In this document: positions 1-10,021 of the stretch, in pieces | Layout of the letters: each line of letters starts with the position of its first letter | Numbering within the stretch: the stretch's first letter is position 1 | Source: a virus | Taxonomy: Duplodnaviria > Caudoviricetes | IMG/VR virus record: IMGVR_UViG_3300037462_000170 | Span: 1 to 33,261 of that record | DNA length: 33,261 nucleotides | Strand: one strand, 5' to 3' | Position numbers and translations under genes: made by a program | Notes under the pieces: model-generated | The model's database searches: none | What the model saw: the letters and a program-made list of their open reading frames with translations, nothing else | What the model was told of the DNA's origin: nothing

Positions 1-9
1 GATCAAGGC

Positions 10-402
10 ATGAGCCACACAATCACACTACGCAACAAGGCGCAGGCCGACTCGATCATCCGCAAGGCAGCGGAGTGGATCGGGCGCCGCGTCGCAGACG
101 GCCGCGCTGTTGTGCTGACGCTGGAAGACGAGCGGCGCAACTTGGATCAAAACGCGCTGCTGCACGCGCTGCTGACCGACATCAGCCACCGCCACGAATG
201 GGCCGGCCGGAAGAGGGACGCTGAATGCTGGAAGCGGCTCTTTGTCGCAGCGTGGTGTCGGGCTCGCGGGGAGGCGGTCGAGATGCTCCCGGCGCTTGAT
301 GGCCACGGCGTCGACATCGTATTTCGGCGCACCAGCAAGATGAGCAAGGCAGAGGTATCTGAGCTGATCGATTACATACAGGCTTGGGATGAAGAGGCAT
401 AA
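10..402 (+). CDS. ninB: NinB/Orf-family recombination protein
   Basis: Motifs RRNLDQNALLHALLTDIS, W.GRK...E.WKRLF and RTSKMSKAEVSELIDYIQAW match lambdoid NinB. Its TAA stop lies in the GCATAAC core site. Confidence 0.9.
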   Translation: MSHTITLRNKAQADSIIRKAAEWIGRRVADGRAVVLTLEDERRNLDQNALLHALLTDISHRHEWAGRKRDAECWKRLFVAAWCRARGEAVEMLPALDGHGVDIVFRRTSKMSKAEVSELIDYIQAWDEEA

Positions 403-484
403 CGTGGAGTTCAGCGGCGTGCCCGCTGGACATTCGAGCAACCACCCTGCTGGCGGCACGTCCGCTGCAACGCAGCGGTTAGGC
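397..484 (-). repeat. attC-like site 1
   Basis: + strand: GCATAAC-GTGGA-GTTCAGCGG-CGTGCC...GGCACG-T-CCGCTGCAAC-GCAGCG-GTTAGGC; two unpaired bases on the right arm. Confidence 0.88.
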
Positions 485-507
485 GTCACTGGCGCCGGAG
501 CGAAGCA

Positions 508-714
508 ATGTGCGAGTGCATGAAAGAGATGAACGTGGTGCTTGAGAAGCACAACTGCCGGCTGGCGATGGGCCTGCAAGTGACGCCCGACATGGGCATC
601 AAGGGTCGCTACCTGATGGCGACCGAGAAGATCGACAAGACGAAGCGCATGCCCGTGCCCAGCGTGATGTGCAGTCACTGCCCGTTCTGCGGCGAGAAGC
701 TGGCGGGCGAGTGA
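508..714 (+). CDS. Small Cys-rich phage protein (CxC...CPFCG), cassette 1
   Basis: GGAG upstream of ATG; fills the space between attC1 and attC2; likely Zn-binding. Confidence 0.8.
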   Translation: MCECMKEMNVVLEKHNCRLAMGLQVTPDMGIKGRYLMATEKIDKTKRMPVPSVMCSHCPFCGEKLAGE

Positions 715-723
715 ATTCGTGAC

Positions 724-825
724 GCCTAACGGACAGGTGAGCCGACAAGGAGGCGAGACGAAATGACCGAAGCGAACCAGAACCACGATGCCGACGAAGG
801 TCGGCGCTCGACCGAACAGTTAGGC
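724..825 (-). repeat. attC-like site 2
   Basis: GCCTAAC-GGACA-GGTGAGC...GCTCGACC-GAACA-GTTAGGC; contains AAGGAGG and ATG 763. Confidence 0.85.
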
Positions 826-1047
826 CCGCTGGTGAACCGCGCATTGTTCGCGGACGAGTGCCAGAGACTCGCTGAGTGGGCGCTTATTGGCCCTGTGCAG
901 CGGGCCGCGCTTGAGAGCTTCGCCGAGCGCCTGCTGGCCGCAGAGCGCGAGCGGTGGAAAAGCCGGTGCGCGGGGAAATCTCACTATGGGTGCCAGTACC
1001 TCGCCACATGCGGCAGCGTGTGTAACAAGTGCGGCACTGCCGTTTAG
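763..1047 (+). CDS. Hypothetical protein with C-terminal Cys cluster, cassette 2
   Basis: Starts inside attC2 after AAGGAGG; C-terminal C..C.....CGSVCNKCG. Confidence 0.72.
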   Translation: MTEANQNHDADEGRRSTEQLGPLVNRALFADECQRLAEWALIGPVQRAALESFAERLLAAERERWKSRCAGKSHYGCQYLATCGSVCNKCGTAV

Positions 1048-1048
1048 G

Positions 1049-1163
1049 GCCTAACGTAGAGGTAAGCGGACCGCAACGGCGAGAAGGACCATGACCACCA
1101 CAGACCCCGCGAACACCACGAGCGGCGCCGCTGTTGCGACTCCGGTTGACCAACCTGTTAGGC
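1049..1163 (-). repeat. attC-like site 3
   Basis: GCCTAAC-GTAGA-GGTAAGCGGA...TCCGGTTGACC-AACCT-GTTAGGC; contains AAGGA and ATG 1091. Confidence 0.85.
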
Positions 1164-1450
1164 CAGCAACCGAAGTGCGCTGGTACTGCGTGAACCGAGA
1201 CGGTCTAGCCACGCTATGCCTCAACGAACAAGATGCGCACGAGATGGCGGCGGAGTGCGACATCGACTTTCCGCGTGGCGGTCCGCATCGGGCTGTGCGC
1301 CTGGTGGATGCACAACAACCGCTGACACGCCAGCAGATTGACGCCGTGATGACCGAGCACTACCCGCTCGACAGCCTGCTGCGCGAGAACGTGGACGCAT
1401 TCGAGGTGTGCGTGCGCGACATAGAGCGGCTTCATGGAATTGGGGCCTAA
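1091..1450 (+). CDS. Hypothetical protein, cassette 3 (paralogue of 6406-6750)
   Basis: Starts inside attC3, ends on the TAA of GCCTAAC; clear paralogue in cassette 12. Confidence 0.82.
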   Translation: MTTTDPANTTSGAAVATPVDQPVRPATEVRWYCVNRDGLATLCLNEQDAHEMAAECDIDFPRGGPHRAVRLVDAQQPLTRQQIDAVMTEHYPLDSLLRENVDAFEVCVRDIERLHGIGA

Positions 1451-1543
1451 CGCAGAGTTCACCGGCCCGACACGGCCGTGACGCTGCAGGCAGAAGCAAC
1501 GGAGGACCCGCCGTGGCGGGTCCGGTGGAACGCCCAGTTCGGC
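1445..1543 (-). repeat. attC-like site 4
   Basis: GCCTAAC-GCAGA-GTTCACCGG...CCGGTGGAAC-GCCCA-GTTCGGC. Confidence 0.85.
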
Positions 1544-1572
1544 TGGGGTTAGATGCAACCGAAAGGACGGAT

Positions 1573-1854
1573 GTGGACCACAACGAATGCGACCTGACGC
1601 CGTGGTTTGACGGCCGCACAAAGCCGATCCGCGTAGGCGTCTACATGCTCAAGTGCGGTGGCGCCGGGCTCAGAGACGGATACCAGCACTGGGACGGCAA
1701 AACGTGGGGGCCTTGGCATCCGAGCGCAGAACATGCCGCGCAGAGGCGGCCCGATCAACGCGCCGATCTGAAGTATCAGAACGACAACTGGCGCGGGCTC
1801 CGCAAGAAGCCGAACGTGGGAATTGAGCCGCCGCGTAGCGGTCGGCTCGAATGA
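1573..1854 (+). CDS. Hypothetical phage protein (TPWF..KP.RVGVY...WRGL), cassette 4
   Basis: Frame of track ORF 1408-1854; likely GTG start at 1573 after AAAGGA. Reads through into attC5 (KKPNVGIEPPRSGRLE*). Confidence 0.72.
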   Translation: MDHNECDLTPWFDGRTKPIRVGVYMLKCGGAGLRDGYQHWDGKTWGPWHPSAEHAAQRRPDQRADLKYQNDNWRGLRKKPNVGIEPPRSGRLE

Positions 1855-1864
1855 CGGGTTAGGC
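1809..1864 (-). repeat. attC-like site 5 (short, 56 bp)
   Basis: GCCGAAC-GTGGGA-ATTGAGCCG-CCGC-GTA-GCGG-T-CGGCTCGAAT-GACGG-GTTAGGC; on the - strand it reads like a classical 59-base element. Confidence 0.9.
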
Positions 1865-1883
1865 CCGTTGTAACCGGAGCGAG

Positions 1884-2054
1884 ATGATGGCGAGCGAACA
1901 ACCAAAGCCCGTGCAATGCGCGTGGTGCCGCAAGGTGTTCACTGCGGGCGGCGACATGGCCTGCGGTGCAAAGGTGCCCACCCACATGGCCGCAGGGCCT
2001 GACGGCGCGTGGTGCAAGACCGACGACATTGTGAAGATGCTGGAGAAGACATGA
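1884..2054 (+). CDS. Small hypothetical protein (56 aa, CxxC), cassette 5
   Basis: Not in the ORF track; translated by hand (MMASEQPKPVQCAWCRKVF...MLEKT*). GGAG RBS; ATGA overlap with the next gene. Confidence 0.65.
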   Translation: MMASEQPKPVQCAWCRKVFTAGGDMACGAKVPTHMAAGPDGAWCKTDDIVKMLEKT

Positions 2055-2266
2055 GCCCAAAGATGCAAGTGGCTATGCGGATCGTGAGCGAGCACCTGGA
2101 CGCGATACAGCGCTCGGTGTTCAAGTCCGATGCCGGCATGAAGCTGACCTTCATTGCCCGCGACCCGGCAAACCCGGAGGCCGACTTTCTGCTGAGCGAA
2201 GACGACCTATCCGAAGTGGCCGAACTGCTGATTCGCAGCGCTGCCCGCGAAGATGTACGGGCCTAA
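2051..2266 (+). CDS. Hypothetical phage protein, cassette 5
   Basis: ATG 2051 overlaps the upstream TGA; ends on the TAA of GCCTAAC. Confidence 0.75.
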   Translation: MSPKMQVAMRIVSEHLDAIQRSVFKSDAGMKLTFIARDPANPEADFLLSEDDLSEVAELLIRSAAREDVRA

Positions 2267-2356
2267 CGTTCGAGCTAAGCGGGAGACGCCCCATGACCAA
2301 GCATGAAGACACCACCCAAGCTGCCGGCGGCTCTCCGCTTGAGTGAGGGGTTGGGC
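2261..2356 (-). repeat. attC-like site 6
   Basis: GCCTAAC-GTTCGA-GCTAAGCGG...CCGCTTGAGT-GAGGG-GTTGGGC. Confidence 0.85.
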
Positions 2357-2385
2357 GGCTGGTGAGCGAAGGCACAGGAGTAGGC

Positions 2386-2508
2386 ATGCTGACATTGACG
2401 CTATGCAAGTTCACGCACTGCCGGCTGCGGCCAGCGTGGGCAAGCAACGCGGCCGGCTGGCAGTTTCACTGGCTGTGGATTTACTTTGAATGGCGGAACG
2501 AGCAATGA
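2386..2508 (+). CDS. Small Trp-rich peptide (40 aa), cassette 6
   Basis: AGGAG RBS; MLTLTLCKF...WQFHWLWIYFEWRNEQ*; ATGA overlap with the next gene. Confidence 0.55.
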   Translation: MLTLTLCKFTHCRLRPAWASNAAGWQFHWLWIYFEWRNEQ

Positions 2509-2735
2509 AGAAGGCCAAGGATTTCAACGCCGACATGGTGGACCTGCAGCTACAGGTGAGCCAAGCCTACGCGGCCGAGGTTCACAAGCTGCGGCAGGAG
2601 AACAAGGAACTGCGCGCGACCATCGCGGCTTTCCCTTCGACCGCCACCGAACTGCAAGACCGCGTGACGATGCTGGAATGCCAACTGCTGGCCCGCAGCG
2701 AGCCGCCCAACGTTGCAATTGAGCCGCGCCGTTAG
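2505..2735 (+). CDS. Coiled-coil hypothetical protein, cassette 6
   Basis: ATG 2505 coupled to the upstream TGA; heptad-like pattern; stops inside attC7. Confidence 0.7.
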   Translation: MKKAKDFNADMVDLQLQVSQAYAAEVHKLRQENKELRATIAAFPSTATELQDRVTMLECQLLARSEPPNVAIEPRR

Positions 2736-2761
2736 GCGTCGGCTCGAATTGCGTGTTGGGC
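2705..2761 (-). repeat. attC-like site 7 (short, 57 bp)
   Basis: GCCCAAC-GTTGCA-ATTGAGCCG-CGCC-GTTA-GGCG-T-CGGCTCGAAT-TGCGT-GTTGGGC. Confidence 0.9.
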
Positions 2762-2807
2762 GTCTCGTGCCGAAGCGCTGAAACGTTGGCGTGTTACAAA
2801 AAAGGTC

Positions 2808-2835
2808 TTGCGTAGTCTGGTTGTTGTGCTACAGT
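2808..2835 (+). promoter_or_regulatory. Putative sigma70 promoter inside cassette 7
   Basis: TTGCGT-16 nt-TACAGT with TG extended -10 motif and an upstream A tract, in an AT-rich gap before ATG 2868. Confidence 0.6.
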
Positions 2836-2867
2836 AACCACATCGACAACGCAACCGGAGAGACGAA

Positions 2868-3074
2868 ATGGCAACGCAACAAGTGAACCTCTACAGCCCC
2901 TGGATCAGCAACCGCAAGAACTGGACGGAGGCCGTGCGCGTTGAGCGTGTGATGCAGGCCACCGGCTGCACCGCTGACGATGCCCGCGAGTACCTGATGG
3001 CTGAGGAAGGCGACGAACACGACGCGATCCTGAGCTACCGCACCGACCGCCAAGCCTACGGGGCGGTGCGATGA
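2868..3074 (+). CDS. Small protein with UBA-like three-helix motif, cassette 7
   Basis: VERVMQATGCTADDAREYLMAEEGDEHDAI resembles UBA-like domains (EF-Ts N-terminus, NAC); GGAG RBS. Confidence 0.7.
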   Translation: MATQQVNLYSPWISNRKNWTEAVRVERVMQATGCTADDAREYLMAEEGDEHDAILSYRTDRQAYGAVR

Positions 3075-3337
3075 GCGCGGCCCTGCGGCAAGACCTAGAC
3101 GAGGCCCGCAAGGGCCTTGCCGAGTGGCGCACGCTGGCGCTTTCGTTGCAGGCACAGATGAAGCACCAAGCCGATTGCCGCGAAAGCGAACTTGTGACGC
3201 TGCTGAAGGACATCCTGCATTGCAGCGACGTGTTTGCAACCTTCCGGCCGGACCTGCACGCGCGGCTGCTGGACTTCGGGCGCCGGCTGAAGGCGCAGGA
3301 GCCCCGCGACGACTTCCCAGACGACTACGAGGTATGA
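3071..3337 (+). CDS. Hypothetical protein, cassette 7
   Basis: ATGA overlaps at both ends. Confidence 0.7.
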   Translation: MSAALRQDLDEARKGLAEWRTLALSLQAQMKHQADCRESELVTLLKDILHCSDVFATFRPDLHARLLDFGRRLKAQEPRDDFPDDYEV

Positions 3338-3534
3338 GCGGCGAACAGAACAAGGGCGGGCGACCGCCCGCGCCGCCTCAGTTGCAGCGCGTGAATGTGC
3401 CGCTTCGCCTGCCGCGCTGGATGGCGGAATGGATCGCGGAGCAGTGCGCAGAAGGCCCGCCGTACAAGACGGCGACACAGTTGATCGAAGCGGCGATGGT
3501 GAAAGCCTACAAGCTGCGCCCGCCGAAGGAGTGA
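3334..3534 (+). CDS. Probable ribbon-helix-helix DNA-binding protein, cassette 7
   Basis: GGRPP...RVNVPLRLPRWMAEWI...ATQLIEAAM pattern; start set to ATG 3334 (GAGG RBS, ATGA overlap). Confidence 0.7.
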   Translation: MSGEQNKGGRPPAPPQLQRVNVPLRLPRWMAEWIAEQCAEGPPYKTATQLIEAAMVKAYKLRPPKE

Positions 3535-3536
3535 CG

Positions 3537-3791
3537 ATGAGCCAGAACTGCCCCAAAGGCGATGAGCCGTGCATTCGCGGCTGCAAAGGATGGGAATGCC
3601 GAGATGGGTGGCCTGAAGACCGCGTGACCTGCGGCGGCGGCTTGCCAGGAGACCCAAACGGCGAACACGCCGCGCTGGCCGTCGAGGTTCTCGTGCGCAA
3701 GTACGAGGGCGCGATGCTGCGCGAGACTTTGCGAGAGGCGTTGACCGAGGCGTACATGATGGGCGCGCAGAACATCCTGGGGAGACTGTGA
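3537..3791 (+). CDS. Cys-rich hypothetical protein, cassette 7
   Basis: AAGGAG RBS before ATG 3537, in the frame of track ORF 3429-3791. Confidence 0.65.
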   Translation: MSQNCPKGDEPCIRGCKGWECRDGWPEDRVTCGGGLPGDPNGEHAALAVEVLVRKYEGAMLRETLREALTEAYMMGAQNILGRL

Positions 3792-3967
3792 TGGACTACC
3801 ACCTACTGACGAAGAAGTGCGACGGCATGTGCGACTCGTGCGAGTGCCCGCCCGCAACGCTTCCCGACAGGCCACCGACGCCCGGTTGCCGCACCCCCGA
3901 AGGGTGCCGCGAAAACGGCTGCCTTGTCTGGTGCGATGAGCACAAGCCGGAGGCGGCAAATCCATGA
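3791..3967 (+). CDS. Small Cys-rich protein (58 aa), cassette 7
   Basis: Not in the ORF track; MDYHLLTKKCDGMCDSCECPP...; TGATG and ATGA overlaps with both neighbours. Confidence 0.6.
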   Translation: MDYHLLTKKCDGMCDSCECPPATLPDRPPTPGCRTPEGCRENGCLVWCDEHKPEAANP

Positions 3968-4191
3968 CCCTGCAAGACCGCATTGACGAACTCGTGGCAC
4001 AGCACGGAAGCCTTCGCGCCGTAGCTCGCGTGACAGAGATTGACGTGGGCTACCTGTCGCGGATGCGGGCCTACGCGAACGTAAACCCGGGCCGCGACAA
4101 GCTGCGCCGGCTGGGCCTGCGCCGTGTGGTGACCTATGAACTGCTCAAGACGCCCAACGCAGAGCTAAGCGGACCGGGCCGGCGCAGATGA
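3964..4191 (+). CDS. Cro/XRE-like HTH protein, cassette 7
   Basis: HGSLRAVARVTEIDVGYLSRMR...NPG...LRRLGL; reads into attC8. Confidence 0.75.
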   Translation: MTLQDRIDELVAQHGSLRAVARVTEIDVGYLSRMRAYANVNPGRDKLRRLGLRRVVTYELLKTPNAELSGPGRRR

Positions 4192-4253
4192 ACTGTCAAG
4201 GAATGCTTGAGCGTTGCCCGCCGGCCCGGGTCCGCTTGAGCGCACTGTTGGGC
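4152..4253 (-). repeat. attC-like site 8
   Basis: GCCCAAC-GCAGA-GCTAAGCGGA-CCGGGCCGGCG...CGCCGGCCCGG-GTCCGCTTGAGC-GCACT-GTTGGGC. Confidence 0.9.
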
Positions 4254-4279
4254 GGCTGCCGCCCGGAGCGAGGAAGACT

Positions 4280-4477
4280 ATGCACACAGCACCGATGTCA
4301 GACAGCCAAGGCGAGTTCGCCGAGTTCAAGACCCAGCCCGACGTGCCTTGCCGCAAGTGCGGCGTGCACGCGGTGAGCATGCGCGAGTGGGAAAGCTCGT
4401 GCGGCGGCTGGGAGGACTACCAGTACAAGTGCCACCACTGCGGCCATACGTGGTGGGTGGAAGGAATTGACGCATGA
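4280..4477 (+). CDS. Zinc-ribbon protein, cassette 8
   Basis: CRKCG...YKCHHCGHTW; ATG 4280 after GAGGA. Confidence 0.75.
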   Translation: MHTAPMSDSQGEFAEFKTQPDVPCRKCGVHAVSMREWESSCGGWEDYQYKCHHCGHTWWVEGIDA

Positions 4478-4692
4478 AGTACTGGTGGCTCGTTGAGAAC
4501 TTCACTGCCGAAGGGCATTCCACCGGGCTCTATATGGCGTGCCAAGTGAACATGACCCTGACCGCCGACGTGCACAAGGCTCGCAAGTTCCGCCGCCAAC
4601 GCACGGCCGAGTTCCGTGCGCTGGACATGCGTGACGCGAGGCGCGGCGACTGGCGCGCCGTGGAGCACGGCTTTGAGGACAGCAAGCCATGA
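4474..4692 (+). CDS. Hypothetical phage protein, cassette 8
   Basis: ATGA overlaps at both ends. Confidence 0.72.
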   Translation: MKYWWLVENFTAEGHSTGLYMACQVNMTLTADVHKARKFRRQRTAEFRALDMRDARRGDWRAVEHGFEDSKP

Positions 4693-4991
4693 GCAGAGAA
4701 GCTTTTGGCGACCCGCCAGAACAGCAGGAAGTGCCTGAGTATTGCCCGAACTGCGGCAGCGACTTCTACATGCCTGGCTGCACGCACTGCGAAGAGGTGA
4801 AGCGGCGCTGCGCCGCCGAGTCCGAAGCGCTGGCCCTGCGCGGGGTTCTGCACCGCATGTTGGAAGCGCCGACGACGCAAATCAGCGTTGGCTGGAAGGA
4901 TGCGATCAGGCGGGCGATGTTCGCAGCCGTGCCCGACAGCAAGACGCCCAACGTGCGAATTGAGCCGGTGACCCCGGCCACGGAGGAATGA
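4689..4991 (+). CDS. Hypothetical protein with two CxxC pairs, cassette 8
   Basis: CPNCG...CTHC; reads into attC9 (KTPNVRIEP...). Confidence 0.72.
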   Translation: MSREAFGDPPEQQEVPEYCPNCGSDFYMPGCTHCEEVKRRCAAESEALALRGVLHRMLEAPTTQISVGWKDAIRRAMFAAVPDSKTPNVRIEPVTPATEE

Positions 4992-5040
4992 TGACCACAG
5001 AAACCACGCCGGGGCACTCGGCTCGAATGAGGGGTTAGGC
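4946..5040 (-). repeat. attC-like site 9
   Basis: GCCCAAC-GTGCGA-ATTGAGCCG...CGGCTCGAAT-GAGGG-GTTAGGC. Confidence 0.88.
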
Positions 5041-5059
5041 CCGTCGTAACCGGAGCGAG

Positions 5060-5299
5060 ATGATGTTTGAGAGCTTCACAATCCAACACCCGTACCGAGC
5101 TGGGACGATGGAGGTTGTTCCTGCTGCCGACTACGCAACAGCAAAGCTGGCAGCCCTGGACTGCCGAACATGCCGACACCTGAGCGCCAAGCACCAAGAG
5201 TGCCTGTCTGTGCTGCGATGCGAAGGCGGCGACATGCACCAGCGGCAAGGCAAACTGATGCTGTGGCACACGGCAGACCTTCAGGGGCGCGGCTTCTAG
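5060..5299 (+). CDS. Cys-containing hypothetical protein, cassette 9
   Basis: GGAG RBS; CRTCRH motif; fills the cassette. Confidence 0.68.
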   Translation: MMFESFTIQHPYRAGTMEVVPAADYATAKLAALDCRTCRHLSAKHQECLSVLRCEGGDMHQRQGKLMLWHTADLQGRGF

Positions 5300-5300
5300 G

Positions 5301-5395
5301 GCCGAACGCAGAGGTCAGGCGGGCCAACGGCCCAGAGGCTTGACCACACCACACACCTGCGAGGCCGTTGGCCTTGCCTGCACCGAAAGTTAGGC
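5301..5395 (-). repeat. attC-like site 10
   Basis: GCCGAAC-GCAGA-GGTCAGGC-GGGCCAACGGCC...GGCCGTTGGCC-TT-GCCTGCACC-GAAA-GTTAGGC; only a 4-nt spacer, possibly impaired. Confidence 0.8.
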
Positions 5396-5421
5396 CTGGT
5401 GGCCAAAGAAGGGAGTAGACG

Positions 5422-5664
5422 ATGCGAAGCAGCAGCCGATTGAACTTGGCCGCGGCGATGGCGATGGCCTCGATTGCCGGCCTGAGCGCCGCGCAAGAGG
5501 CCGCCGGCCCCCCGTTGCGCAGCGCCGGAAGCGGCAACAACCGACGGCCGACTCCGCCGCGCATGGATACGGAGCAGGCGCGCGAGGTGGCGGCCTGGAA
5601 TGCCGAAGTGGACCGCCGAAAGGCTGAGAAGAAGGCCGCCAAGCTGGCGAGGCGCGCGGCCTAA
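5422..5664 (+). CDS. Hypothetical protein, cassette 10
   Basis: GGGAG RBS; Ala-rich N-terminus, basic C-terminus; ends on the TAA of GCCTAAC. Confidence 0.7.
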   Translation: MRSSSRLNLAAAMAMASIAGLSAAQEAAGPPLRSAGSGNNRRPTPPRMDTEQAREVAAWNAEVDRRKAEKKAAKLARRAA

Positions 5665-5757
5665 CGCAGCGGTAACCGGACAAGGAGGCTGCAGTGAGTG
5701 AGCAAAGCGAGAAGGTGCCGCCGGCCGACGCAGGTCCGGTTGACCAACCTGTTGGGC
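5659..5757 (-). repeat. attC-like site 11
   Basis: GCCTAAC-GCAGC-GGTAACCGGAC...GTCCGGTTGACC-AACCT-GTTGGGC; contains AAGGAGG and GTG 5694. Confidence 0.87.
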
Positions 5758-5930
5758 GGCCGGTGGACGAAGCCACGGACGCCGAAGGGCCGCGAGGCAC
5801 CTACGGGTGCGCTTGCGTGAGCCGCAGCGGCCATGCATGCGCCGAGCTGCGCTACGGCTACCGCGAGATACCGGAGCCGTGCGAGTGCCTGTGCCACGAC
5901 TGGAGAGACGGCGATGACGACCTGGGCTGA
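5694..5930 (+). CDS. Cys-rich hypothetical protein, cassette 11
   Basis: GTG start inside attC11 after AAGGAGG; CAC...C...CECLCH. Confidence 0.68.
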   Translation: MSEQSEKVPPADAGPVDQPVGRPVDEATDAEGPRGTYGCACVSRSGHACAELRYGYREIPEPCECLCHDWRDGDDDLG

Positions 5931-6102
5931 CGAGTACGTGACCCTGCTGGAAGACTGCGAGAAGCGCAGCGAGCGCCTGAGCGATTGGGAACTCGGTTTC
6001 GTGGACTCGCTGCAGCGGCAACTGGCCGAAGGGCGCAGGCCCAGCGCGAAGCAGATCGAGACGCTGGACACCATCTGGGAGCGCGCCACCAAGCGCGGCT
6101 GA
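5914..6102 (+). CDS. Small hypothetical phage protein, cassette 11
   Basis: LSDWELGFVDSL...PSAKQIETLDTIW pattern; ATG 5914 after GGAG. Confidence 0.75.
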   Translation: MTTWADEYVTLLEDCEKRSERLSDWELGFVDSLQRQLAEGRRPSAKQIETLDTIWERATKRG

Positions 6103-6106
6103 CGCC

Positions 6107-6367
6107 ATGCACGTTGAACTGCAGATGGACCTAGCGCTGCTGCAGCGCGCCATGAAGGCCGAAACCGAAGCCGCGCTGCTGCGGGCTGCGCTGGACGCCG
6201 AAACGGCACGCTGGGAGGAAGCCCTGCGCCTGACATGGCAGATGGTGGACCCGCTGAAACCGGCCGGGCAACCCGGCAGCTACTGGCGCGGCCAGGACGC
6301 CGGGATAGTGGCCGCGCTGACCACACTGCGGGCGAACCTGAAGACGCCCAACGCAAAGCTAACTTGA
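6107..6367 (+). CDS. Hypothetical protein, cassette 11
   Basis: Follows the upstream stop by 4 nt; reads into attC12 (KTPNAKLT*). Confidence 0.68.
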   Translation: MHVELQMDLALLQRAMKAETEAALLRAALDAETARWEEALRLTWQMVDPLKPAGQPGSYWRGQDAGIVAALTTLRANLKTPNAKLT

Positions 6368-6463
6368 CCGCCACGGCGCGAGCGCCACAACTTGAGGAAG
6401 ACGAGATGACCGATGCAGACAACAGGCCCGCCGTGGCGGGTCAAGTTGAGCGACCTGTTAGGC
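6346..6463 (-). repeat. attC-like site 12
   Basis: GCCCAAC-GCAAA-GCTAACTTGA-CCGCCACGGCG...CGCCGTGGCGG-GTCAAGTTGAGC-GACCT-GTTAGGC. Confidence 0.9.
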
Positions 6464-6750
6464 CTGCCGCCGAAGCGCGCTGGTACTGCCTGAGCCGCGA
6501 AGGCATGGCAACGCTGTGCGCCGACGAGGAAGACGCAAAAGAGGTGGCCGCCGAAAGCTGGGTTCTGTACCCGAACAACGGGCCATATCGTGTGGCGCAA
6601 ATGGTGGACCGACAACAGCCGCTGACGCGCCAGCAAATCGACGCGGTGATGACCGAGCACTACCCGCTGAGCAGCCTGCTGCGCGAGCAAGTGGACGCCT
6701 TCGAGGCATGCGTGCGCGACATTGAGCGGCTGCATGGCATTGGGGCCTAA
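6406..6750 (+). CDS. Hypothetical protein, cassette 12 (paralogue of 1091-1450)
   Basis: ATG 6406 after GAGGA inside attC12; aligns with the cassette 3 protein. Confidence 0.82.
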   Translation: MTDADNRPAVAGQVERPVRPAAEARWYCLSREGMATLCADEEDAKEVAAESWVLYPNNGPYRVAQMVDRQQPLTRQQIDAVMTEHYPLSSLLREQVDAFEACVRDIERLHGIGA

Positions 6751-6865
6751 CGCCCGAGCTAACCTGACCGACACAGCGCGATGACAGACCAAGTAACCCA
6801 GGACGCACCGACCGACGCCAGCCACAGGCCCGCTGTGGCGGTTCAGGTTGAGCGAAGTGTTAGGC
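6745..6865 (-). repeat. attC-like site 13
   Basis: GCCTAAC-GCCCGA-GCTAACCTGA...TCAGGTTGAGC-GAAGT-GTTAGGC; contains ATG 6781. Confidence 0.87.
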
Positions 6866-7419
6866 CCCATGCGACGGCTGCGGGCTACGGCTGCATATTG
6901 GCTGACCCGCCTTGGGCGCTGACGATGGCCGGGCAGCGCAAGCGTGCGAAGGAAGGCAAGAAGCCCGAGGCGCTGCCGTACCCGACGATGACCATTGCGC
7001 AGATATGCGACATGCCCGTTGGCCAGCTTGCCACCGAAGACGCGCACCTGTGGCTGTGGACAACAAACCAGCACCTTGAGGACGGATTCAAGGTGATGCG
7101 AGCGTGGGGCTTCAAGTACCTGGCGCCTGTGCATTGGGTGAAGCCGACAGGCATGGGCAACTGGTTTGTACACCGCACGCAGACGATGCTTTTTGGCTAC
7201 CGCGAGAAGTGCAGGTTTCCGCTGGCGCGCTACCGGCCGAACGTGTTTCACAGCGGCGACCCGAAGCGGCACAGCGAGAAGCCGGAAGCGGCCTATGAAC
7301 TGGTGGAAGCGGTGAGCCCTGGGCCGCGCTTGGAGTTGTTCGCGCGACGGAAGCGCGATGGCTGGCACACCTGGGGAAATGAGGTGCCATGCGATGTATT
7401 CATGGGGCCTAACAGGTAG
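6781..7419 (+). CDS. MT-A70-family adenine methyltransferase, cassette 13
   Basis: ILADPPW catalytic motif, YPTM, HLWLWTTN, WGF.Y, HSEKP, RLELFAR, GW..WGNE. Confidence 0.92.
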   Translation: MTDQVTQDAPTDASHRPAVAVQVERSVRPHATAAGYGCILADPPWALTMAGQRKRAKEGKKPEALPYPTMTIAQICDMPVGQLATEDAHLWLWTTNQHLEDGFKVMRAWGFKYLAPVHWVKPTGMGNWFVHRTQTMLFGYREKCRFPLARYRPNVFHSGDPKRHSEKPEAAYELVEAVSPGPRLELFARRKRDGWHTWGNEVPCDVFMGPNR

Positions 7420-7425
7420 ATATGC
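7407..7425 (-). other. attI-like recombination site at the right end of the array
   Basis: GCCTAAC is not followed by an attC hairpin but by AGGTA-GATATGC. GATATGC is a 6/7 inverted match to GCATAAC at 397-403. Confidence 0.65.
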
Positions 7426-7769
7426 GCACTTTGCAACCTCTGCACAGCCGCTGGGCTCGCTACAACGCCGACCCCGCGAACCACGCGCGCCGCCGCGCAG
7501 CGAGAGACGCAGCCCGCATCGCCGGCCCTGCGCCAGCCTACCCACCAGACGCGCCGCTGCACGGAGACTGGCTCGGCGGTCGCATCAACGGCCACACCGT
7601 CATCGTGCGCCTGATGCGTGACCCAAGGCACCGCAGCGACCAATGGGCGGCCGAGGTCGACGGCGAGGTGATCGCGGACGCTGCGGGGCTGACGGAGCTG
7701 TGGAGACTGCTGCACCAGCGCTGGCCGCGGGCGCTGTCCCGGCGAGAGATTGCGGGGATGACGACATGA
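7422..7769 (+). CDS. Hypothetical protein
   Basis: ATG within the attI-like site; ATGA overlap with the next ORF. Confidence 0.62.
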   Translation: MRTLQPLHSRWARYNADPANHARRRAARDAARIAGPAPAYPPDAPLHGDWLGGRINGHTVIVRLMRDPRHRSDQWAAEVDGEVIADAAGLTELWRLLHQRWPRALSRREIAGMTT

Positions 7770-7975
7770 CAGACAACACCGGATGGCGATGGGTCCGCCT
7801 GCGCCAAACGTCAGACGGCCGGCGCGTCGCCAAGGAATGGGCCGCCGAAGCCGCCGAGCCGCCCAGCTTCTTGACGCCGACGGCGACAGTTGCGCGCGAG
7901 GTCATGCGCGGATTCAGGCCCGAGCATACGCATCGGGCGTGGTCGCATGTGTTCGGCTACCGCTACAGGGAGTGA
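7766..7975 (+). CDS. Hypothetical protein
   Basis: ATG 7766 in the frame of track ORF 7643-7975, coupled to the upstream stop. Confidence 0.55.
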   Translation: MTDNTGWRWVRLRQTSDGRRVAKEWAAEAAEPPSFLTPTATVAREVMRGFRPEHTHRAWSHVFGYRYRE

Positions 7976-7976
7976 G

Positions 7977-8159
7977 ATGATCATCCGCATCGAATCCGCA
8001 TCGACCCGCCGCTGGCAGGCCCGCGCGTACACCGTGGCGCCTCGGTACGTGTCCAAGCTGTTCAGCGATGCCAAGTGCGGCGGCATCGATGCTGCATACG
8101 CACTCGCTGCGGCAGAGGCGCCGAAGCTCAAGCGCAAGGCAAGGAGGCGGCGGGCGTGA
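7977..8159 (+). CDS. Small stand-alone AP2-like DNA-binding protein
   Basis: GGGAG RBS; WQARAY...SKLFSDAKCGG..AAYALA resembles phage AP2 domains. Confidence 0.55.
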   Translation: MIIRIESASTRRWQARAYTVAPRYVSKLFSDAKCGGIDAAYALAAAEAPKLKRKARRRRA

Positions 8160-8375
8160 CGATCTGGCGCGTCCTGTGGTTTCCGTAGTAGCAGCGTATC
8201 ATGGCGGCTCTCACACCGTCGTTGCCACACGTCGACCAGCCAACCCGCTCAGGCGTCATGAGGATTAGCCCCCCGGCTGATCGAAACCGCGGGACCGGGG
8301 ACTCTCACGCATGCGCCTCCAATCGGGAGAGCTGCCGGTGACCAACGCGGGAAGCCGCGAACGGGGCGCAGTCGT

Positions 8376-8456
8376 GAGGGCGAATGCGCAGGCTGATGCG
8401 CAGCGGAGTAGCTCCCGTCCGCTACGGCAAGCCGGAGATCAGCGCCGGCCGCTCTC
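8376..8456 (+). ncRNA. Candidate structured RNA (four-way junction with complementary loops)
   Basis: Closing stem GAGGGCG/CGCTCTC; arms TGCGCA-GGCTGA-TGCGCA, AGCGGA...TCCGCT and GCCGG-AGATCAGCG-CCGGC; loops GCTGA and TCAGC are complementary. Confidence 0.5.
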
Positions 8457-8777
8457 TTCCAACTCACCGAACCCTGACGCCAGCGACTCCCGCGCCCTCT
8501 TGGCCGCGCTGTCGATCTGCTGCGAGTCGATCAGCGCCTGGCCGGTGATGTAGGTTCGCAGCAGGGTCTCAAGCTCATCCTGCCGCGTCCTGGCCTCGTC
8601 GAGCTGCCTGACCAGCCGATCCCGCTCCCGGCGCTCGTGCCTGCGGTCGCGGTCGACGTAGCCGCGAAGCTCATCCAGCCGCGCCCATGCAACCATGAGC
8701 CGGACGCGGATGTTCCGGCGCTGCGCCCGCTTGCGGCGGGCTTGGTCCCATGCGCGAAGGCGGCCGAGGATGTTCAT
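8439..8777 (-). CDS. Basic coiled-coil hypothetical protein
   Basis: 112-aa Arg-rich helical ORF at the end of the - strand late operon. Confidence 0.55.
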   Translation of the reverse strand: MNILGRLRAWDQARRKRAQRRNIRVRLMVAWARLDELRGYVDRDRRHERRERDRLVRQLDEARTRQDELETLLRTYITGQALIDSQQIDSAAKRARESLASGFGELEESGRR

Positions 8778-8887
8778 GGGATTGGTTGTGTGCTACTATT
8801 TCCAGGTCTGGCTTCTCGGTTGGACACGGCGGGTGCTTCGGCGCTCGCTTGAAGGCCCCGTGGTGCGAGCCCGGGGCCTTCGCCTTT

Positions 8888-10021
8888 CTAGCGCGCCGTC
8901 AACTCCGTTTTCCGAGCGCTGCTGAAGCTGGTGCCGATCCAGTAGCCAGCCACCATGCCGACGACCGCAAGAACCGCGGTCACGATCTGAACCCGAAGCT
9001 CGCCGGTGTAGTTGCCGGGATGGACGAACAGCACATCCACCAGCAGCATCATCGGCATCAGGATCAGGACGAGGCTGATCAGGAATGCCGGGTTCCGCCA
9101 CAGCGGGATGCCTGACTCCATGGTGGCAGTGTTCGCCTTCCTGGCGCCCTCAACACCACCGCCGCCGGCCTCGGTCAGTTCGTACCAGATCGACTCGACG
9201 GCCTTCTCTGCCGCAGCCCTTGCCACGGGGTCGGCCCTGATCTTCTCGGCCGCGTCCTGGGCATTGACGGCACCCGTGGCGGCAGTCACGGCCTCGACGA
9301 CCACCTCTGCGGCCTTGATGTTTCGCTCTGCCACTTGAGAGCCGGACCCGAACACCCGGCCCAGCTTCGGGATGCTCTCGATCAGGCTCGGCAAGACGGC
9401 TGCGATGATGGGCGCGATTGCGGGCATGCTTTGCTCCTTCGGCCACTCAGGGCCTTCGATCCACAGAGGCACTTCGGCCGGGGCTGGCTGGTTGGCAAGC
9501 ACCGCCTTTGCTCGCTCCCAACGTGCGCGGCGGTCTGCGGCTCCGTTCGTCCCGCCATTGATGCGGCGCGTGATGCGGTCGAAGTCGCCAGCGTCGGCCA
9601 ATGCGTTTAGGTTGCGCGACCCCCACCACGCCGCGGCCGACCACGCGGCCCACTGCGGTTCTTCCAAGGCTTCGGGGCTGGCCTCAAAGTCTGGCGCTCC
9701 CTGGTGGGCAAGTAGCTGCCCCATCTGCCGATAGTTGTCCCGGCCGGTGACTTGGATCAGGCCCCGACCGCGATAGCGCGTGCCGTCGCCTTGGTTGACG
9801 TTGCCGAGGTCTTTCCGACCTTCGTAGGCCGATCCGTCGGCAATCTCGCGCAGCCACTTGAATGACCCGGACTCGTGGCCGATTTGGGCCAAGAAGGCGG
9901 CCAACCGATCTGTGGTATTGATCTCGTAGAAGCGGCAGGCTTCCGACAGCCAGCCAGCGAACAACTCCGCGCGCTCCGGCGTGCAGCCGGTGGCGTCTTG
10001 GAGTAGTTGCGGGGTGATCAT
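8888..10021 (-). CDS. GH19-family endolysin fused to a C-terminal membrane (holin-like) domain
   Basis: RLAAFLAQIGHESG, YEGRKDLGN, GDG.RYRGRGLIQVTGR.NY, ITRRINGG.NG..DR. Start reset to ATG 10021, overlapping the upstream stop. Two hydrophobic segments at the C-terminus. Confidence 0.88.
   Translation of the reverse strand: MITPQLLQDATGCTPERAELFAGWLSEACRFYEINTTDRLAAFLAQIGHESGSFKWLREIADGSAYEGRKDLGNVNQGDGTRYRGRGLIQVTGRDNYRQMGQLLAHQGAPDFEASPEALEEPQWAAWSAAAWWGSRNLNALADAGDFDRITRRINGGTNGAADRRARWERAKAVLANQPAPAEVPLWIEGPEWPKEQSMPAIAPIIAAVLPSLIESIPKLGRVFGSGSQVAERNIKAAEVVVEAVTAATGAVNAQDAAEKIRADPVARAAAEKAVESIWYELTEAGGGGVEGARKANTATMESGIPLWRNPAFLISLVLILMPMMLLVDVLFVHPGNYTGELRVQIVTAVLAVVGMVAGYWIGTSFSSARKTELTAR

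Follow-up and report, generated by a model that had tools for sequence, protein, structure and literature searches.

The window analyzed here is a linear 33-kb contig (33,261 nt) of a freshwater phage, which CheckV rates as 91% complete and which may fall short of the full genome by about a tenth or more. Replication and immunity genes are absent upstream of ninB. Next to ninB lies an array of about two dozen small predicted genes (24 plus-strand ORFs) arranged in 13 cassettes bounded by attC sites, and the array closes with an attI-like site and a gene for a 115-aa protein (Table 1). The labels ninB and MT-A70 given by the first-pass annotation were both confirmed. Its Zn ribbons proved to be weak matches below the cut-off, and the proteins it labeled HTH and RHH have no Pfam or PHROG match.

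Table 1. Features of the array and its borders, in window coordinates (minus strand = attC top strand)
Feature	Position	Strand	Remarks
ninB (Orf recombination mediator)	10-402	+	PHROG 72, E 7e-29
attC 1 (most distal), 88 bp	397-484	-	36.5 bits; R' box contains the ninB stop codon
Cys-rich 68-aa ORF of cassette 403-729	508-714	+	
attC 2, 102 bp	724-825	-	RBS and ATG of ORF 763-1047 within the variable stem
attC 3, 115 bp	1049-1163	-	contains start of ORF 1091-1450; run X5 departs at 1057
119-aa ORF	1091-1450	+	paralog of 6406-6750
attC 4, 99 bp	1445-1543	-	strict scan and covariance model
attC 5, 56 bp, short bacterial type	1809-1864	-	57 bits
attC 6, 96 bp	2261-2356	-	strict scan and covariance model
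attC 7, 57 bp	2705-2761	-	strict scan and covariance model
Largest cassette, 1447 bp	2711-4157	+	six closely coupled ORFs (2868-4191)
attC 8, 102 bp	4152-4253	-	strict scan and covariance model
Three coupled ORFs	4280-4991	+	
attC 9, 95 bp	4946-5040	-	83% identical copy in L084, before a different gene
attC 10, 95 bp	5301-5395	-	weakest match, 19 bits
attC 11, 99 bp	5659-5757	-	covariance model
attC 12, 118 bp	6346-6463	-	contains start of ORF 6406-6750
attC 13 (proximal), 121 bp	6745-6865	-	encodes residues 1-28 of the MT-A70 ORF
MT-A70 family DNA methyltransferase	6781-7419	+	
attI-like simple site, candidate cassette entry point	7407-7425	-	putative function
115-aa protein	7422-7769	+	in inverted arrays, the family always follows the attI-like end directly

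The 13 attC-like palindromes of 56-121 bp described earlier are all present at the positions and sizes given, and their attC architecture was borne out by a covariance model trained on 38 attC sites, all taken from bacterial arrays whose genomes carry intI. Run on both strands, the model detects 13/13 sites on the minus strand (19-57 bits); plus-strand scores reach at most 25 bits and lie below the minus-strand score at every site. The layout R''-5 nt-L''(extra base)-VTS-L'-5/6 nt-R', with conserved AAC and GTT, is recovered at all 13 sites by a loose pattern scan. A strict scan keeps 11 of them, all on the minus strand, and finds none in 7500-33261; in 300 dinucleotide-shuffled versions of 1-7500 the mean was 0.04 strict sites and the maximum 1. 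When 11 sites were folded, most minimum-energy structures paired the L and R boxes, some only partly, and the bottom-strand fold was the more stable in 9/11. Several hairpins are only partly in the recombinogenic shape, for example 1445-1543. With attC sites less than 4 kb apart on one strand and no integron integrase within the 33-kb contig, the cluster is a CALIN, an IntegronFinder term used here as defined in the accessible text of 10.1101/030866. Rfam and tRNA scans returned no matches.

The gene-bearing plus strand is laid out like an attC bottom strand, as comparison with the aadA7 control (Qi et al. 2023, PMC9892861, Table S3) makes clear; the cargo is therefore inverted. The ORF of a canonical cassette occupies the attC top strand and points to its own attC, whereas these genes occupy the bottom strand, and they point towards attI rather than being driven away from it by a Pc promoter. 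Third-position and synonymous bias relative to homologs is seen in 11/24 plus-strand ORFs (9/24 have no usable homolog and 4/24 are equivocal in this coding test), and the sole antisense frame that shares the coding bias is broken by stops in 10/11 ORFs. Where homologs are located close to an attC, they are on its bottom strand in 47 cases and on its top strand in 2. Five genes of the array begin within attC hairpins. Among 75 phage-type sites, long hairpins contain an RBS and ATG on the bottom strand in 31 cases and on the top strand in 1, compared with 0 and 1 at 15 chromosomal sites. Two other orientation tests were set aside: A-over-T skew, for which 110/118 phage gaps are A-rich on the bottom strand, was dropped because chromosomal arrays with top-strand genes are A-rich likewise, and an open frame ending in the R box was uninformative (77 vs 76). 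A search of 1-9000 for the sigma-70 consensus, a weak test, gave no match. We found no publications describing the inverted layout.

At its other end the array stops in a 14th site, an attI-like half site with an R box at 7407-7413, a 5-nt spacer and an L-like box overlapping the next start codon; the predicted cut falls between 7412 and 7413. A conserved site of attI layout (R box, spacer, degenerate L box) ends the array in 22/22 loci that have the adjacent gene, a member of a 100-130 aa family found in this slot here and in 21 other loci. The family had no match in sequence searches of Pfam, PHROG and PDB. For the protein of the window, the predicted fold is a long basic helix, a four-stranded sheet and a further helix; Foldseek returned no significant match in PDB (first model) or BFVD, and a VIA comparison gave no match at Z 5. 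The best Atlas match of the family, DUF4761 at 0.78, is below the useful range. Compared with the arm-type (three-stranded sheet) DNA-binding domain of integrases, the best related structure was 3jtz (Z 3.4, rmsd 4.1, 53 aligned). We rejected descent from an IntI remnant, which found no match in the search. The gene is a candidate helper that replaces intI, and it may also be only a passenger.

No IntI was found in the contig by tblastn or profile search, and the 115-aa gene occupies the slot beside attI; the enzyme is therefore likely borrowed from the host or another phage. The contig is linear and lacks the genes noted above upstream of ninB, so the phage might instead encode its own IntI in the missing part of the genome and borrow nothing. 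We consider this highly improbable, because IntI-bearing phages have intI directly after attI, exactly where the 115-aa gene sits here, and because the 115-aa family was never found together with IntI (0/32; 0/27 by record, with 5 of the 27 records at least 90% complete).

Related phages do carry the enzyme. G018 (100% complete) and G001 encode TIGR02249 integrases immediately following an array of this kind, and both have cargo in common with the contig; the integrases score 412 bits and 269 bits (the latter gene is cut by the contig end) against a cut-off of 265. In the 10 loci listed, IntI starts 43-67 nt past the cut. Quick IQ-TREE and FastTree phylogenies were computed, and 23 phage IntIs form one branch apart from 41 bacterial IntIs (FastTree, SH-like 99). 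The phage intI genes are co-directional with the cargo, and a LexA-like box precedes 1/16 of them, versus 10/38 chromosomal ones. Among bacteria, IntI is encoded in 61/151 genomes of the order holding Roseateles, and the same attC types occur in a conventional array on a Roseateles chromosome. However, attI sites are reported, in the portion of PMC8946536 available to us, to perform poorly with integrases other than their own, so it cannot be assumed that a host IntI is used.

The cargo is shared among phages, in support of the first-pass annotation, and a phage-specific cassette pool fits the data. The whole cassette 403-729 recurs at 92.8% identity in another context (L063), and the three-gene cassette 5665-6351 recurs entire in L225 (84%). 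ORFs one and two of 4280-4991 occur without the third in L073 (93%), and ORF two is also found in the IntI-bearing G018; pieces of cassette 2711-4157 are rearranged in L046 and L240. The two paralogous ORFs of the array share 74-83% nucleotide identity and each has a different attC. Similarly, the body of the MT-A70 gene is 95% identical in the IntI-bearing G001 with a different attC, the identity stopping at 7413, and copies of attC 13 (93-95%) are present in L251 and, before a different methyltransferase, in L084. A blastn search of the array against 50,697 GenBank phages gave no match. Array DNA was found in 0 of 401 Roseateles-order genomes, a weak result, with two candidates scored per listed genome and no positive control. 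A ninB scan of GTDB genomes yielded no confirmed ninB, and at most 16% of words were present in RNA runs.

Alignments of related phages record the gain, loss and relocation of cassettes at the predicted R' crossover point. In run X5, 1-1057 and 7407-8500 match the contig almost exactly (1 difference over 89-1057, 2 over 7407-8346) and the sequences diverge at both borders, the distal part of the array being the part retained. L031 differs from L040/L069 at 2 of 9389 bases up to the cut, where L031 has an attC and L040/L069 enter the attI-like site; in both comparisons the attI-like site marks a natural breakpoint. Natural breakpoints at R' lend indirect support to the proposed recombination of single-stranded bottom strands by IntI. 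The capture and shuffling proposed earlier thus stands as turnover at predicted crossover points but accounts for only part of the mosaicism, because most homology breakpoints lie elsewhere and hairpins and genes assort independently. Among 84 non-redundant arrays, shared blocks (at least 90% identity over at least 150 nt) end at R' in 11/33 and 7/29 cases, against a chance expectation of about 2% per locus, and elsewhere in 22/33 and 22/29. Since R' often coincides with gene ends, enrichment at R' is expected under any mechanism. All 26 near-identical long attC pairs differ left of R', and 3/26 keep the same gene, so simple bottom-strand excision is not a sufficient explanation. Read depth in X1, the probable source run, drops from 15-25 to about 5 on the left side of site 4, and the contigs are interrupted at the sites; the order given here may therefore be one path through a mixed population. 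The predicted empty site, with ninB joined directly to the gene at 7422, was not found among 14 ninB loci.

Two further explanations were weighed. One is that a fragment of a bacterial chromosomal integron was captured once, as an ordinary CALIN, and is now frozen. Sedentary chromosomal integrons of Burkholderiales and Lysobacterales (Roseateles L162, Dokdonella L133) do have the same attC boxes and fall into the same length classes (about 57 and 85-126 bp), the Burkholderiales arrays sharing the attC types of the phage; a model trained on such chromosomal arrays detects all 13 sites, and Vibrio and Shewanella phages have been described as carrying captured fragments (PMC9892861). However, the genes of the bacterial arrays examined are on the top strand, facing away from intI, opposite to the phage array; 0/15 of their hairpins hold bottom-strand translation starts; no phage ORF had a homolog in the chromosomal arrays compared; and near-identical phages differ in content. 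Orientation and turnover largely refute a frozen fragment, to which we give hardly any credence.

The other explanation is that the sites are of integron origin and now function chiefly as short boxes of homology and as modules for translation start, which the phage's Red/NinB-type recombination reshuffles without IntI. It draws on the adjacency of ninB, the many breakpoints away from R', the separate assortment of hairpin, leader and gene in 23/26 pairs, a 48-nt right arm and leader 96% identical before two unrelated genes, a 9-nt direct repeat around ORF 4689-4991 (the ORF absent in L073), and the five genes that begin within the hairpins. Yet 13 divergent sites preserve the extra-helical base, 5-nt spacer and strand asymmetry, features read only by IntI; the 7-bp box at which exchanges take place is too short for homologous recombination; and related phages keep intact IntIs with all catalytic motifs in 23/23. 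We regard it as unlikely.

We therefore favor, at a probability of roughly 78%, the reading that this region is an inverted phage integron lacking an integrase gene, with 13 attC-bounded cassettes, an attI-like end and genes on the attC bottom strand, likely rearranged by IntI supplied in trans. The inversion, the attI-like end, the conserved gene beside it and the absence of IntI here versus its presence in relatives had all been missed by the first-pass annotation. The enzyme would be a host chromosomal IntI or a phage-clade IntI of a co-infecting phage or prophage. New cassettes would enter at 7412/7413, in which case the newest gene is read last and the oldest lies next to ninB. The whole array would be read from the phage early operon through ninB, and an integron promoter would therefore not be needed. 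More tentatively, short-homology recombination, for which the adjacency of ninB can be cited, may act on top of this and exchange genes and hairpins both at the R'' box and at coupled stop-start junctions.

Phage attC clusters have been published (Qi et al. 2023, PMC9892861), and in this respect the first-pass annotation was overstated. As here, those CALINs lack intI and often include DNA methyltransferases, and five of six phage attC sites assayed recombined with IntI1 (PMC9892861). However, they comprise 2-4 sites (3 in TJE1; Table S1) rather than 13 and an attI-like end. The one TJE1 site that we rescanned has the usual orientation, unlike ours; MW202573 has one strict site inverted, which passes unremarked in the available text of that paper, and the same text, as far as accessible, does not describe a phage IntI clade or an attI-adjacent gene. 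Complete integrons of temperate phages (Vibrio Va_90-11-286_p16, Shewanella M16-3, P1; PMC9892861) likewise place intI, attI and cassettes on a phage, but they are captured host or class 1 pieces, whereas the phage IntIs analyzed here form a separate branch. IntI can also insert cassettes at short GWT sites (attG) outside integrons (Loot et al., 10.1101/2022.09.11.507474). Such an event is a plausible origin of the first insertion next to ninB, although attG lacks the conserved L box and the linked gene that the end site here has in 22 loci.

A broader possibility, which we consider less likely than not, is that phages of Betaproteobacteria maintain an integron lineage of their own, modified so that cassettes are read from the phage early operon. 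One of its two forms would have a phage-specific IntI; in the other, a new small protein encoded at attI would take the place of intI by recruiting, inducing or steering the host integrase. In these arrays the R'' box would be the point at which attC hairpins are joined to ordinary phage genes. If true, such joins would show new cassettes in the making.

Integrons have been treated as bacterial devices and, more recently, as stores of anti-phage genes. In the present case phages appear to use integron chemistry for accessory genes of their own, in a mirrored arrangement and with a separate integrase clade and an attI-linked protein. The independent assortment of hairpins and genes provides natural material on cassette assembly. 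The array offers a concrete mechanism by which the early regions of phages become mosaic, and it may be a route by which cassettes pass between phages and hosts.

The attC sites of the window are real, and the array they form is inverted. The 13 sites that the first-pass annotation had claimed from sequence were all recovered by a loose scan (11 by a strict scan), on the minus strand throughout, and no attC-type site was found by the same scans in the remainder of the contig; the scan's shuffle control gave a mean of 0.04 sites over 300 shuffles. The suggested covariance-model check likewise matched 13 of 13 sites, all on the minus strand (19-57 bits), with a model trained, in order to avoid circularity, on 38 attC sites from bacterial arrays in intI-bearing genomes. 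In control bacterial arrays the long ORFs lie on the attC top strand, whereas the cargo genes of the window lie on the bottom strand; the window's plus strand is laid out like the aadA7 bottom strand (Qi et al., Table S3, PMC9892861). One bottom-strand gene belongs to the MT-A70 family (E 5e-26), and synonymous bias against homologs is seen in 11 of 24 window ORFs (4 equivocal, 9 with no usable homolog). Five ORFs start within an attC hairpin, four ORFs and ninB have their stop codon within R' (the core box holding the predicted crossover point), and six ORFs read through into the next site. A-over-T skew was dropped as an orientation test after failing its control.

Coordinates of features in the window and in comparison loci
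Feature	Record	Position	Strand
ninB	window	10..402	+
array of 13 attC sites	window	397-6865	-
promoter-like stretch	window	2800-2870	
MT-A70 ORF	window	6781..7419	+
attI-like end site (cut between 7412 and 7413)	window	7407-7425	-
attI-adjacent gene (115 aa)	window	7422-7769	
endolysin	window	8888-10021	
terminase, portal, coat, DNA-ejection, tail-spike, endolysin genes (PHROG matches)	window		-
truncated distal attC	L073	1434-1509	
ORF and repeats past array end	L155	4215-6374	
IntI-like gene region	L404	4680-8813	

The array is closed by an attI-like end site, in which a 5-nt spacer separates an R box from an L-like box and which is the predicted entry point for cassettes. Locus L001 and the window share the body of the MT-A70 gene at 95% identity up to base 7413, beyond which L001 has an attC and the window its next gene. 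Over 9389 bases, locus L031 differs from L040/L069 at 2; it then splits from them exactly at the cut, where it enters an extra attC (L031 stops 196 bases beyond the split). Sequencing run X5, which carries a single organism label, contains positions 1-104, 89-1057 (1 difference), 7407-8346 (2 differences) and 8319-8500 of the window, and its two long contigs run past the array borders into 357 and 122 letters unlike the window. Because the two arms lie on separate contigs, we only infer that both come from one phage; the cassettes kept are the distal two, in agreement with the prediction of integron polarity. The region downstream of ninB also differs in content among relatives, as the first-pass annotation had anticipated: in locus L073 (ninB 83%) the corresponding interval contains eight strict sites, and one partial cassette is shared with the window. 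In L073 the distal attC beside ninB lacks its left half, and the right half still provides the next gene with its RBS and start. Past the array end of L155 lie a 515-aa ORF and, behind it, short direct repeats, an arrangement like that of a compact CRISPR or TnpB-type locus.

The proposal that cassettes are shuffled holds in part: exchange at R' and recurrence of whole cassettes are found, but most block borders lie elsewhere. Two loci (L063 and L225) contain complete cassettes of the window, from one R' to the next. In a set of 84 non-redundant phage-type arrays, R' is where shared blocks end in 11/33 cases and start in 7/29, against a chance level of about 2% per locus, or up to about 4% when a block is classed by either locus; the other borders fall at leaders, at coupled gene junctions or within genes. 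Long attC sites that are >=88% identical form 26 pairs; the sequence left of R' differs in every pair and that right after the second core box, R'', in 20, with only the leader kept in 3 and the gene kept in 3. In L084 the hairpin of site 13 precedes another methyltransferase, and in L001 the window's MT-A70 body sits behind another hairpin, so that swapping at this site goes both ways. As judged from these comparisons, exchange in phage arrays goes beyond whole-cassette moves. Such swaps could arise by top-strand IntI crossover cutting at R'', which PMC5371416 reports as roughly a thousandfold rarer, or by short-homology recombination.

No IntI gene was found in the window contig. A tyrosine recombinase is present in 3 of 24 viral records with the window-type attC family, two of them matching TIGR02249 above cut-off. 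In the phage G018, inverted cassettes, end site, intI and a phage integrase follow one another on a single strand, and its IntI, used as a query, retrieved 48 viral loci. Of the 30 closest (L347-L375, L393), 20 have an upstream flank of 1 kb or more, which in 16 of them holds at least one same-orientation attC. In a tree, 23 distinct full-length phage IntIs, all with intact catalytic motifs, group on one branch (SH-like 99), separate from 41 bacterial IntIs; the clade's monophyly is provisional, since the group was taken from a first tree, its members were selected (very long branches and fragments excluded) and so was the bacterial set (28 top scorers from a sample, and 13 others). Only nine GenBank phage records match the G018-type IntI, each at <60% identity. 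With IntI present in phage relatives and in 61 of the 151 genomes sampled from the order of Roseateles (a tally counting the unpublished G100), supply in trans from either the host or another phage is plausible.

Several further loci bear on integrase diversity. L388, L389 and L394 have attI followed by intI remnants of 49-84 aa, that is, phage integrons that deleted their integrase. L404 (KX853513, Virus Rctr41k) has an IntI-like gene annotated xerD; its two inverted attC-like sites lie downstream, not upstream. A second, divergent IntI-like set in viral contigs (L377-L387), several with end site and inverted arrays, has long branches and unsure placement. The Roseateles bin G026 holds two intI genes, one class 1-like, on a 1.3-kb contig (L214), and the other of chromosomal type.

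In the slot where relatives carry intI, the window has an uncharacterised attI-adjacent gene, whose family comprises about 197 clusters at 50% identity, with members down to 20-27% identical. A profile of 11 members matched 22 distinct loci; the end site lies immediately 5' of the start codon in all 22 (four judged by eye), and attC lies upstream in 20, the remaining two having no flank. Retrieval by protein only yielded 10 loci, six of which were new; among the nine with upstream DNA, inverted attC is present in 9/9 and the end site lies 8 nt before the ATG in 8/9. The family was found in 0/32 records with phage intI or an intI remnant (positive control 5/5), and IntI in 0/27 records with the family, five of them >=90% complete; these counts rest mostly on fragmentary records, and the two groups may simply be different phage lineages. 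In the predicted structure (pLDDT 89.5), a basic helix at the N-terminus precedes a four-stranded sheet and a further helix; a fold comparison gave no significant match. A helper role is possible, at rather less than even odds; the gene is no less likely to be a passenger with a start that overlaps attI. In L399 (same contig as L207) the gene is flanked on both sides by inverted attC arrays.

The window is a complete linear viral record of 33,261 bp with a CheckV completeness of 91%, whose plus strand runs from ninB through the array and onward to lysis genes. Its endolysin joins a chitinase-like domain to a membrane segment at the C-terminus. The wetland metagenome run X1, the probable source, contains 96% of sampled window words; its depth over positions 1-1500 is 2-6 left of site 4 versus 15-25 right of it, which suggests either that the population is mixed or that packaging produced a gradient. 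The host is probably a member of Burkholderiales, since a phage-like contig from a Roseateles genome bin has attC sites in common with the window. At the head of a six-gene cassette, a promoter-like stretch precedes a strong RBS; it scored below the pass mark in a sigma-70 scan, and recurs together with attC 7 before other genes in L046 and L070.

We found no published inverted phage array, phage IntI clade or attI-adjacent gene in the literature covered, which excludes most subscription journals. The text of PMC9892861 does not discuss inverted ORFs; its figures and Dryad annotation file could show them.

Read from its sequence, the region is well supported as an integron in its working, with non-canonical cassette orientation and without intI. 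An early transcript would pass from ninB through the cassettes and, in reading through the array, would require cargo on the bottom strand, with attC hairpins and leaders turned into translation-start modules. In lambdoid phages, the replication fork follows early transcription. If the same applies here, with the origin outside the contig, the bottom strand would be the lagging-strand template, the orientation that PMC5371416 and PMC8946536 describe as favouring excision.
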